This document shows positions 735-2,708 of a stretch of DNA of 4,407 bases, piece by piece. How positions within the stretch are numbered: the first letter of the stretch is position 1; every line of letters begins with the position of its first letter. A program made the position numbers and the translations under genes. Where the stretch lies: positions 1 to 4,407 of the IMG/VR virus record IMGVR_UViG_2667527595_000022; one strand, given 5' to 3'. Under the pieces are notes generated by a model. It made no database searches and was not told the origin of the DNA. It worked only from the letters and a program-made list of their open reading frames with translations. This stretch comes from a virus (Duplodnaviria; Heunggongvirae; Uroviricota; Caudoviricetes).

Positions 735-2708
735 ATGGCATTTAAACACTATGACGTGGTCAGGGCATCATCGCCGTCAGACCTCGCAGGAAAACTGACG
801 CAAAAACTGAAGGAAGGCTGGCAACCCTATGGTAGTCCGATTATCTCAAACGCGGGTTATGGTGCTGAATTTATCCAGGCTATAGTCGCTGAAGGGGATA
901 TGACCTCTCCGGTAGTTTCACCGGGGGGAGATGGTACCCGGACTGTTGTTGTTGAACCAGAATATTACTTTGTCATTGCGCTGGCCGGACAGTCAAACGG
1001 CATGGCGTATGGTGAAGGCCTGCCGCTGCCGGAGACATATGACCGTCCGGACCCGCGTATTAAACAGCTGGCGCGTCGCAGTACGGTGACACCGGGTGAT
1101 GCGGCCTGTGCATATAACGACATCATTCCGGCGGACCACTGCCTGCATGATGTGCAGGATTTGAGCCGTTTTTCTCATCCGAAAGCCAGCGCAGAGCAGT
1201 ATGGGTGTGTCGGACAGGGATTGCATATTGCCAAAAAGCTGTTGCCCTTTATGCCGGAAAATGCGGGTATTTTGTTAGTGCCGTGCTGTCGTGGTGGCTC
1301 TGCGTTTACAGCCGGTGCTGACGGAACGTTCAGTGAAAGTTCAGGAGCGTCGGATAAATCTGAACGATGGGGCGTTGATAAGCCGTTGTATAAAGACCTG
1401 CTGACACGCACTCAGGCCGCGCTGAAGGCAAACCCCAAAAACATACTGCTTTGTGTTGTCTGGATGCAGGGCGAGTTTGATTTAAAACAGGGAGCGTACG
1501 CCAGTCAGCCCGCCATGTTTGATGCCATGGTGGAAAAATACCGTTCTGACCTGGCGGGAGTATCCGGTCAGTGCGCTGGTGCTTCTCCTTCTCTGGTGCC
1601 CTGGATTTGTGGTGACACGACGTACTACTGGAAGGAGACGTATTCAGCGCAATACGATGCCGTCTATGGCGCATACAAAACCAAAGCCGGTAAAAATATC
1701 TTCTTTGTGCCGTTTATGATGGATGACAATGGTCAGAAAGTCGGGACCAATGAACCGTCAGAAGACCCGGATATTCCGGCTATCGGGTATTATGGTTCCG
1801 GTGGACGAACGGATGCGAAGAGCTGGACAACATCCGATCGTAAAACCCACTTTGGTTCATGGGCGCGTCGCGGAATTATTTCCGACCGTCTGGCAACAGC
1901 CATTCTTCTGCATGTGGGCAGAGTGGCAGATTTTGTTTCCGGGAAAGTGACAAAAGCCGCGGTTTCTTCAGGCGGAGGCGTATCGCAACCAGCACAGGAG
2001 AGTGGCGATACTCAGCCTGAAGCCGTTGTCCCGACAAAGATACAGTCAGTGCTGGCTTATGATGTGAATGCGGAAAATGCCGCTCTGGCTTCGCAGGGCT
2101 GGACGCTGACAGATGTCAAAAACACGCTGGTCAGTGACAGTGGTTCAGGTAAAAAAGCCCTTCGTCTTGAAAAACCAGAAAATGGTCTTGCACAGAAAAA
2201 GACCTGGAAAGTATCGCACGCAATTGATGCCGGTAAGGGGAAGGAGCTGTTCGATAACGGCGGTGAAATCACGCTGCGCTTTAAAATCCCCGATGATGTA
2301 TCTCTCAATGCTTCTGCAAATCAATATTCTGCGGGTATTTACTGGCGCGGTAGTGGATGGCCGGGAGCGGAATCAGAGGAGGGTTATATTGCGGCCTTCT
2401 ATCTGCAGACTGATAAAACAAACATCAATGTGATGTATCATGCAAACACCACATCACAGCGGCTTGGTAGTTATGGTCCGTTCGATCACGACTGGCACAC
2501 GCTGACTTTCCGCTTCCCGGGTGGTGGCTCGCTGAACGTCACGCCGGTGCTTGATAATGCAGCAGGAAAACCGTTTACGCTGACCAGATGGACGAATGCA
2601 GCCTTTGAGGCCAACGCGCTGGCAATTACGGATATTACCGGAAATGCGGCAACTTACCCTGTGCTGATTGAAAGTCTTACTGTTGGTGTGAATGCCGTAG
2701 CAGCATAA
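735..2708 (+). CDS. nanS-p: Prophage-encoded sialate O-acetylesterase (NanS-p-like; SASA/SGNH-type esterase) with N-terminal DUF1737-like region and a C-terminal ~220-aa accessory domain
   Basis: Long ORF (657 aa from ATG 735, stop TAA 2706-2708) with a good RBS. The esterase region carries the GQSN motif (..FVIALAGQSNGMAYGEG..) typical of SASA-family 9-O-acetylesterases. The N-terminus MAFKHYDVVRASSPSDLAGKLTQKLKEGWQPYG matches my recollection of the DUF1737 N-terminus of NanS-p proteins in E. coli lambdoid and Stx prophages. It lies immediately upstream of the lysis cassette, as in those phages. Identity is from memory and motifs, not a database search. Confidence 0.8.
   Translation: MAFKHYDVVRASSPSDLAGKLTQKLKEGWQPYGSPIISNAGYGAEFIQAIVAEGDMTSPVVSPGGDGTRTVVVEPEYYFVIALAGQSNGMAYGEGLPLPETYDRPDPRIKQLARRSTVTPGDAACAYNDIIPADHCLHDVQDLSRFSHPKASAEQYGCVGQGLHIAKKLLPFMPENAGILLVPCCRGGSAFTAGADGTFSESSGASDKSERWGVDKPLYKDLLTRTQAALKANPKNILLCVVWMQGEFDLKQGAYASQPAMFDAMVEKYRSDLAGVSGQCAGASPSLVPWICGDTTYYWKETYSAQYDAVYGAYKTKAGKNIFFVPFMMDDNGQKVGTNEPSEDPDIPAIGYYGSGGRTDAKSWTTSDRKTHFGSWARRGIISDRLATAILLHVGRVADFVSGKVTKAAVSSGGGVSQPAQESGDTQPEAVVPTKIQSVLAYDVNAENAALASQGWTLTDVKNTLVSDSGSGKKALRLEKPENGLAQKKTWKVSHAIDAGKGKELFDNGGEITLRFKIPDDVSLNASANQYSAGIYWRGSGWPGAESEEGYIAAFYLQTDKTNINVMYHANTTSQRLGSYGPFDHDWHTLTFRFPGGGSLNVTPVLDNAAGKPFTLTRWTNAAFEANALAITDITGNAATYPVLIESLTVGVNAVAA

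Follow-up and report, generated by a model that had tools for sequence, protein, structure and literature searches.

A probable nanS-p sialate O-acetylesterase gene in the late region of an stx-negative 933W-like prophage

Described NanS-p systems and the source of the locus

Sialate O-acetylesterases of the NanS type are known from the Escherichia coli nan regulon and from prophages. The host enzyme NanS (YjhS; PDB 3PT5) is a single-domain protein of 326 amino acids, whereas the prophage-encoded NanS-p proteins of 933W (L0105/z1466) and phi24B (vb_24B_21, gp84) have a DUF1737 domain, a SASA domain, and a jelly-roll domain. NanS-p esterases, those of non-Stx prophages included, have been shown to act on Neu5,9Ac2 and on mucin glycans, and nanS-p has been reported to be coinduced with stx2a. 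In both phages the gene lies downstream of STnc100 and antisense sRNAs and upstream of the DUF1378 and DUF826 open reading frames and the lysis genes S and R, and in 933W it is also preceded by stxAB and the ileZ-argN-argO tRNA genes. The STnc100 gene of 933W scores 207.7 bits and starts 75 bp past the stxB2 stop codon, upstream of nanS-p, and the Hfq-binding sRNA EcOnc27/sRNA103 has been described at this position.

An arrangement that lacks stx is known from prophage PP2 of EPEC strain E2348/69, in which the order is Q, PasD2, SASA esterase, PasA, holin, and lysozyme, and stx adjoins fewer than 3% of the esterase-PasA-holin loci found on chromosomes. Published work thus already covers the gene family, its activity, its occurrence in non-Stx prophages, and the order of sRNA, esterase, and holin. 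The stx-free arrangement noted in a first-pass annotation of the DNA studied here is not an unusual one.

The DNA that we analyzed (the window) is a stretch of 4,407 nucleotides that constitutes a complete 4407-bp draft contig (CDRQ01000216.1, GCA_000941195.1). The source genome shows 734 bp upstream of the esterase gene, and we read the wider gene context from loci that are 99 to 99.9% identical rather than from the source genome itself. Positions 1 to 3983 match a complete prophage of 933W-type gene order at 99.9% identity; its major capsid protein and that of 933W are 94% identical, and the closest genome is that of a UPEC isolate. Among sequenced phages, the esterase allele occurs only in stx-negative ones, with PhiR12_3 and PhiR5_2 (recorded host, E. 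coli K-12) carrying it at 99.3 to 99.8% identity, and it is less than 60% identical to every NanS-p of the sequenced Stx phages.

The esterase and its three domains

The esterase open reading frame is intact and runs on the + strand from an ATG at position 735 to a TAA at 2706 to 2708, encoding a protein of 657 amino acids, 12 residues longer than the NanS-p proteins of 933W and phi24B. Reading the sequence upstream, we identified a Shine-Dalgarno motif (GGGAGG, 725 to 730, + strand) 4 nt from the ATG that is also kept in 933W. RefSeq annotates a SASA family carbohydrate esterase at identical coordinates in a 99.9% identical prophage (L001), and the protein matched phrog_143 over its full length (E = 3e-297); no NCBIfam model matched it. 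We consider it highly probable that this is an intact nanS-p allele from an Stx-negative relative of 933W and phi24B, with the same three-domain architecture as their proteins.

All of the Pfam matches in the protein scored above the curated cutoffs. The DUF1737 domain (amino acids 1 to 57; positions 735 to 905, + strand), a putative capsid-binding module, was matched by PF08410 over amino acids 3 to 53 (61.7 bits, E = 6e-17). The SGNH/SASA catalytic domain (amino acids 71 to 391; 945 to 1907, + strand) aligned with E. coli NanS (3PT5) over 321 residues (E = 3.2e-117) and was matched by PF03629 over amino acids 83 to 274 (E = 1e-9; 38.6 bits versus a cutoff of 24.8). Taking the reference NanS blocks for 3PT5 from a structural survey (PMC10792757), we found that all four SGNH blocks are kept, namely, GQSN at residues 85 to 88, which holds Ser87 (codon at 993 to 995), RGGSAF at 185 to 190, MQGEFD at 244 to 249, and RKTH at 369 to 372, which ends in His372 (codon at 1848 to 1850). 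The first three are identical to those of NanS and the fourth shares its R-x-x-H pattern, for which other NanS-p proteins have RSSH, RASH, or RPTH; Ser87 and His372 are the equivalents of NanS Ser19 and His301.

The proposal of a NanS-p-type sialate O-acetylesterase in the first-pass annotation was therefore borne out, with the SASA and DUF1737 profiles that it had named both matched, a DUF6645 domain also present, and the GQSN serine and catalytic histidine in place on alignment to 933W NanS-p. Its further expectation of a catalytic Asp does not apply to NanS-type enzymes, the acid in 3PT5 being a main-chain oxygen according to the same structural survey; because such an Asp is not a NanS feature, its absence does not count against the assignment.

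The lectin-like C-terminal domain (amino acids 438 to 653; 2046 to 2693, + strand) matched the crystallized "NanS-p" domain in PDB 6YP6 (E = 3.3e-43), and DUF6645 (PF20350) matched amino acids 508 to 618 within it (E = 6e-27); its jelly-roll fold is assigned by sequence homology. The aromatic residues proposed to form the sugar site are kept, with Y531, Y536, Y556, and F624 aligning with Y510, Y515, Y540, and F611, respectively. Overall, the protein is 59% identical to 933W NanS-p (L0105), but the identity is unevenly spread, at 77% in DUF1737, 72% in the catalytic domain, ~20% in the linkers, and 45.5% in the C-terminal domain. The last figure also holds against the crystallized domain, and substrate targeting may differ as judged from this divergence. 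The esterase genes of PP2 and the window are ~70% identical in DNA over part of their length.

Activity of this allele on Neu5,9Ac2 is predicted by analogy with the NanS-p alleles that have been assayed, the published demonstrations being for other alleles only. The NanS-like SGNH module, with its Ser87/His372 active site, would remove 9-O-acetyl groups from Neu5,9Ac2 and mucin sialoglycans, and the jelly-roll module probably targets the enzyme to glycans. Since the protein has no signal peptide, it would be expected to reach the outside on virions or through phage lysis.

The late leader and the missing tRNA-stxAB segment

The first-pass annotation had described the region upstream of the esterase gene as a noncoding leader of ~700 bp with terminator hairpins. 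The hairpins are real, in that 13 terminator-like hairpins were found in the window versus 4.5 ± 2.2 in shuffled sequences, and those on the + strand at 203 to 222 and 473 to 492 are genuine features of the upstream 734 bp. The leader is not an empty one, however, as it holds STnc100-type units and an antisense element. The clearest unit, an STnc100-family sRNA gene at 294 to 503 (+ strand) that ends in the intrinsic terminator at 473 to 492, covers the full RF02076 model (positions 1 to 206) at 138.2 bits (E = 1.6e-31), above the gathering threshold of 47. A second, degenerate STnc100-like unit at 54 to 229 (+ strand), with its intrinsic terminator at 203 to 222, aligns with the other STnc100 copies, but its assignment is a weak one at 30 bits (E = 8e-4), below the gathering threshold. 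Positions 1 to 18 (+ strand) are the terminator tail, or 3' end, of a further STnc100-family unit cut by the contig start; in the 99.9% identical L001 locus, the Rfam match to this unit (145 bits) spans 11827 to 12018, which corresponds to window positions −173 to 18, and its terminator lies at 11990 to 12009.

Between the last of these units and the esterase gene lies an antisense sRNA-like element on the − strand (506 to 559), with a strong terminator at 533 to 514 followed by a run of eight U residues. It resembles an sRNA candidate from RIL-seq in EPEC, E2348C_1409.E2348C_1408.IGR, with 47 of 54 positions matching, and occupies the position of AsxR in 933W. We did not adopt AsxR as its identity, as 933W and the window have in common just the placement and the terminator architecture and the window gave no Rfam match to AsxR even at E ≤ 1. 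The adjoining 560-to-740 interval is conserved with 933W at the DNA level; a conserved − strand small open reading frame was rejected there, the 42-amino-acid frame at 566 to 694 being out of register with the 933W frame and no frame being open in both. Also set aside as a gene was the open reading frame at 22 to 189, which, despite matching a PHROG of unknown function, overlaps the degenerate STnc100 unit.

The stx-negative state, an sRNA gene directly upstream of a SASA esterase gene, and a P21-type holin and lysozyme downstream are common to PP2 and the window lineage. Using Pas sequences obtained via the E2348/69 coordinates in the RIL-seq supplement, we searched for PasA, PasC, and PasD homologues and recovered just a match to the 5' 26 nt of PasD2 (window 323 to 351; 25 of 29 positions), with no match to PasA. 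Because the PasD2 match is confined to the 5' end and a PasA match is absent, the leader sRNA is best described as STnc100 type, with nothing PasA-like before the holin gene. Where PP2 has PasA between the esterase and the holin, the window has the DUF1378 and DUF826 open reading frames and no PasA or PasC homologue.

In the near-identical prophages, the gene order is Q, an extra open reading frame, pR'/qut/tR', a second terminator, three STnc100-type units, the antisense sRNA-like element, nanS-p, DUF1378, DUF826, S, R, and Rz. Their pR'/qut/tR' region is 95.7% identical to that of 933W, lies ~230 to 530 bp upstream of window position 1, and joins the STnc100 units almost directly. The first-pass annotation had inferred an stx-negative lambdoid prophage with the esterase gene in the late operon and no adjacent stx or tRNA genes, and each of these points stands: the prophages are 933W-like, and the gene has Q and pR'/qut/tR' upstream and the S/R lysis genes downstream. 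ARAGORN, which recovered the three 933W tRNAs as a positive control, found no tRNA genes in the window or in eight related loci, and tblastn with Stx2A and Stx2B found no stx remnant in the window, the matches in relatives being at chance level (E ≥ 5).

The 1.8-kb segment that carries the tRNA genes and stxAB in 933W is cleanly absent from the near-identical prophages, which have extra STnc100-like units instead. The locus thereby gives base-level boundaries of this segment relative to a toxin-free backbone, with the second terminator after pR' on the left and, on the right, the STnc100 unit, where 933W homology resumes 46 bp past the stxB stop codon. With the tRNA-stxAB segment absent, the esterase gene becomes the first long gene of the late operon, and the Q-antiterminated late transcript would reach nanS-p before any other long protein-coding gene. 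Expression would be expected mainly once the prophage has been induced. On this comparison, the esterase looks like a conserved part of the backbone and stx looks like an optional insert.

Downstream genes and possible roles of the esterase

Downstream of the esterase gene, all on the + strand, the window holds a DUF1378 small open reading frame (2850 to 3044; PF07125, E = 7e-36), which commonly lies between nanS-p and S, is annotated by RefSeq in L001, and has been noted in Stx phages; a DUF826 open reading frame (2956 to 3360; PF05696, coordinates from RefSeq) followed by a terminator at 3370 to 3398; the class II (P21-type) holin gene S (3437 to 3652; PF04971, E = 5e-35); and the first 109 codons only of the endolysin gene R (3657 to 3983; PF00959). 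At codon 109, the endolysin gene is joined in the source contig to a gcvP fragment that is 99.8% identical to that of Nissle 1917, and in every genome matched by megablast the prophage homology ends at 3983. The exact 42-mer across the junction was not found in a search of one genome per species, nor was a 32-mer in metagenome contigs; the chimeric 155-amino-acid open reading frame that spans it had no exact copy in the gene catalogue; and none of 5,426 complete E. coli genomes covered more than 90% of the window. Because no other copy of the junction was recovered and the contig breaks off just 424 bp inside a single-copy core gene, the evidence points to an assembly chimera. If the break in the lysis cassette at 3983 is real, the prophage is defective.

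The first-pass annotation had labeled the esterase gene a moron, a label that we now regard as doubtful. That the gene is pure lysogenic-conversion cargo, feeding the host on O-acetylated mucin sialic acids and having no role in the particle, seems to us possible but on balance unlikely. Growth of EDL933 and O104:H4 on Neu5,9Ac2 has been reported to benefit from multiple nanS-p alleles, among them those in non-Stx prophages, and the gene sits in the Q-S region, where morons such as stx are found. The features of an autonomous cassette are missing, however. No sigma-70-like promoter was found on the + strand of the window by a simple consensus scan, which can miss weak promoters; no + strand terminator lies between the esterase stop codon (2708) and position 3370; and the GC content of the gene (0.517) is equal to that of its flanks (0.51 in the leader and 0.519 in the S/R region). 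Moreover, five + strand intrinsic terminators separate pR' from the gene in a near-identical prophage, and nanS-p was present in all 59 of 59 Stx2a phages in a published survey, which fits a backbone gene better than an accessory one. A particle role is suggested by a single cryo-EM preprint (2026) on phi24B, in which the orthologue gp84 decorates the capsid and is anchored there by DUF1737; this module is said to form a hexamer bound at the central hexon on every face of the capsid, and it may do likewise here, as the window protein keeps both the "tooth" anchor residue Tyr42, which is common to 933W and phi24B, and Gly54. The cargo and capsid readings are not mutually exclusive, but the locus and the preprint together favor placing nanS-p among the late genes of the phage backbone, with a possible structural role, over calling it a moron.

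Two further readings concern what the protein does, or whether it does anything. A virion-displayed enzyme might aid adsorption by deacetylating O-antigen or sialic acid capsules such as K1 rather than host mucin, and a bacterial-surface target for NanS-p has been raised as a possibility in a review. The strong divergence of the lectin-like domain from those of the Stx phages would suit such a role, as would the presence of the allele in stx-negative phages and in strains of extraintestinal or commensal type (the UPEC genome and the Nissle-like gcvP noted above). We nonetheless hold it to be improbable, given that the catalytic domain is very close to that of NanS and to those of NanS-p proteins whose substrates are free Neu5,9Ac2 and mucin glycans and that, according to the preprint, storage seems to lead to cleavage between the phi24B catalytic domain and the N-terminal domain bound to the capsid. 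A motif of the SSP type, the processing site proposed there, is represented by TSP/VSP in the first linker of the window protein and is missing from the second. That the esterase gene is instead a decaying, nonfunctional remnant in a defective prophage, as the truncated endolysin gene next to it might suggest, has in our view very little chance of being correct, because its 657 codons are open, its catalytic blocks are complete, the identical protein is encoded on nine public contigs and a 99.8% identical one in PhiR12_3, and the lysozyme/gcvP junction is itself a probable artifact.

A broader reading would join these strands, with the lineage representing the Stx-phage late leader in its "empty" form, where pR'/tR' abuts a tandem STnc100-type array that would serve as a recombination scaffold for gain and loss of tRNA-stxAB, and with the esterase as a conserved capsid-displayed backbone protein whose strongly diverged lectin domain, 45% identical to that of phi24B, would direct virions to another glycan in E. 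coli hosts of extraintestinal or commensal type. As a whole we think this rather unlikely to hold. The diverged lectin domain of this allele is in any case a reasonable candidate for differences in glycan targeting among NanS-p proteins.

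The esterase gene and its divergence

A single long ORF at 735-2708 (+) encodes a product of 657 aa. Its mechanical start is a TTG at 705; we chose the ATG at 735, which is preceded by GGGAGG at 725-730, yields the N terminus MAFKHYDVVRA also found in NanS-p of the Stx phage 933W, and corresponds to the RefSeq start in a 99.9% identical prophage. Pfam detected DUF1737 (aa 3-53), SASA (aa 83-274), and DUF6645 (aa 508-618), all above the curated cutoffs. Among solved structures, aa 71-391 matched Escherichia coli NanS/YjhS (3PT5; E = 3.2e-117), and aa 438-653 matched 6YP6, the crystallized "NanS-p" C-terminal domain (E = 3.3e-43). 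These domains and structural matches bear out the NanS-p-type esterase gene proposed in the first-pass annotation, whose coordinates were exact.

A structural survey of SGNH enzymes (PMC10792757) lists the blocks GQSNA (17-21), RGGSAF (120-125), MQGEFD (178-183), and R-x-SHFS (...303) in 3PT5. The window protein carries GQSN at aa 85-88 (Ser87, codon 993-995), RGGSAF at aa 185-190, MQGEFD at aa 244-249, and RKTH at aa 369-372 (His372, codon 1848-1850). Thus, the Ser and His of the catalytic Ser, His, and Asp proposed as a check are present, whereas the Asp is not to be expected in NanS; because the "acid" of 3PT5 is a main-chain oxygen rather than an Asp side chain (PMC10792757), the test should shrink to Ser and His. 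[quoted passage not shown]

The protein was 59% identical overall to 933W L0105; DUF1737 (77%) and the catalytic domain (72%) were the most similar parts, the C-terminal domain reached 45.5%, and the two linkers ~20%. A homologue was encoded in 351 of 50,697 phage records; within that set, only PhiR12_3 and PhiR5_2, both stx negative, carried this allele at ≥99%, and every Stx-phage allele was <60% identical to the window protein. By sequence, then, the gene is a distinct, uncharacterized allele of a well-characterized family. An stx-free nanS-p arrangement is a correct finding but one already known: non-Stx prophages are explicitly described in the literature as carrying nanS-p, with active alleles, and prophage PP2 of EPEC E2348/69 is a concrete stx-negative example. 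Only the divergence of this allele, chiefly in the lectin-like domain, goes beyond published work. In the record of PhiR5_2 (PV340546.1), a phage propagated on K-12, two ORFs (6735-6956 and 7003-8709) are annotated where the same gene lies (6735-8709, 99.3% DNA identity), which suggests either a frameshift or a split introduced by annotation.

The absent tRNA-stxAB segment and the leader

The window is byte-identical to the whole 4407-bp contig CDRQ01000216.1 of draft assembly GCA_000941195.1, and the source genome shows only 734 bp upstream of the esterase gene. Window 1-3983 matches a prophage of UPEC-245U (locus L001) at 99.9% identity and 17 further complete genomes at ≥99.0%; the identical esterase protein is also encoded on five more draft contigs. 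L001 runs NinB, NinE, RusA, NinH, Q, a 197-aa ORF, a 1.3-kb gap, and the esterase, followed by DUF1378, DUF826, holin, lysozyme, Rz, terminase, portal, and major capsid protein; the lineage has a podovirus backbone of the 933W type that lacks stx. The 197-aa ORF (L001 10813-11406, DnaD_N Pfam hit) separates Q from pR', whereas in 933W Q overlaps pR' directly.

We compared L001 11466-11798 with 933W (AF125520) 20657-20957 and 22748 onward. L001 11466-11767 aligned at 95.7% identity with the part of 933W in which pR', qut, tR', and a second terminator are annotated, and homology resumed ~30 bp later with 933W sequence starting 46 bp past the stxB2 stop codon. Because the pR' block joins post-stxB2 sequence within ~30 bp, the ~1.8-kb block pT-ileZ-argN-argO-stxA2B2 is, judged by this alignment, cleanly absent relative to 933W, and the comparison sets base-level boundaries for the absent segment. 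In agreement with the earlier claim that no stx or tRNA genes are adjacent, ARAGORN, which recovered the three 933W tRNAs as a positive control, found the window and eight related loci free of tRNA genes, and tblastn with Stx2A and Stx2B gave no match in the window and only chance-level matches in the relatives. The late-operon location was likewise supported: the pR' block lies ~233 bp upstream of window position 1, so that the late transcript is predicted to have nanS-p as its first long coding gene. Between pR' and the esterase gene there are five + strand intrinsic terminators.

The ~700 bp upstream of the gene had been described as a non-coding leader with terminator hairpins. The hairpins (203-222 and 473-492) are real, but they are the terminators of STnc100-family units rather than parts of a plain leader. 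Rfam identified a full-length STnc100 (RF02076) at 294-503 (+, 138 bits), a degenerate STnc100-like element at 54-229 (+, 30 bits, below threshold), and a third copy at L001 11827-12018 (+, 145 bits), ending at window position 18. The stretch from the late promoter region to the esterase gene holds a tandem array of three diverged units, each with a separate intrinsic terminator; 933W, in contrast, has one (208 bits), starting 75 bp past the stxB2 stop codon and preceding nanS-p, a position at which published work places the Hfq-binding sRNA EcOnc27/sRNA103. Directly after STnc100, 933W carries AsxR on the opposite strand. The corresponding position here holds an sRNA-like element (506-559, −) with a strong terminator at 533-514, which does not score as AsxR by Rfam but matches the EPEC RIL-seq candidate E2348C_1409.E2348C_1408.IGR, an Hfq-associated sRNA candidate, at 47 of 54 positions. 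A related order, pasD/STnc100, sialic-acid esterase, pasA/pasC, holin, lysozyme, is described in a 2026 preprint, which reports that <3% of such chromosomal loci adjoin stx; no homologue of PasA or PasC was seen at this locus. Window 600-735, the ~130 bp directly 5' of the esterase start, shows ~80% DNA conservation with 933W. A conserved ORF was rejected, there being no reading frame shared with 933W on either strand; the segment could serve nanS-p as a 5' UTR element or contain the promoter from which the antisense sRNA is transcribed.

Virion-associated protein or cargo?

The first-pass annotation called the gene a moron, a label that its surroundings do not support. A consensus scan of the whole window gave no + strand promoter-like site, the + strand has no terminator from the esterase stop codon to 3370, and the GC content of the gene (0.517) equals that of its flanks. 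These missing cassette marks also count against the esterase being a pure cargo gene, as does the behavior of the phi24B homologue. According to a 2026 preprint combining cryo-EM and proteomics, phi24B gp84 (NanS-p) is a capsid-decoration protein whose DUF1737 attaches as a hexamer, via a Tyr42 "tooth", to the hexon at the center of each face and which is processed after about Gly54-Ser57. The window protein retains Tyr42 and Gly54, and the major capsid protein of L001 is of the N4-gp56 type and 94% identical to its 933W counterpart. Because moron marks are lacking, Tyr42 and Gly54 are kept, and the capsid protein is 933W-like, we favor a conserved late esterase, probably associated with the virion, over pure cargo, which we regard as unlikely; the putative capsid role is drawn by analogy with phi24B. 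Either reading would fit the growth advantage on Neu5,9Ac2 that has been published. In one survey, nanS-p was present in 59/59 Stx2a phages, and it is co-induced with stx2a.

Downstream of the esterase, the ORFs for DUF1378 (2850-3044) and DUF826 (2956-3360) share 89 bp, read in different frames. DUF826 is separated from the holin gene by a strong + strand terminator (3370-3398), at a site expected to be internal to a single late transcript.

The contig ends

At 3983/3984, the endolysin gene (3657-3983) ends at codon 109 and is joined to an internal, antisense gcvP fragment (3984-4407) that is 99.8% identical to Nissle-type strains, the phage and gcvP homologies overlapping by only 2 bp. None of 5,426 complete E. 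coli genomes contains this junction, and it was likewise missing from representative genomes, metagenome contigs, and a gene catalogue. An assembly chimera is the likeliest explanation, ranking above a real rearrangement at this point. The contig ends 424 bp into gcvP, a single-copy core gene. Its start falls within the terminator of the first STnc100 unit, which suggests that the STnc100 repeat broke the assembly there.
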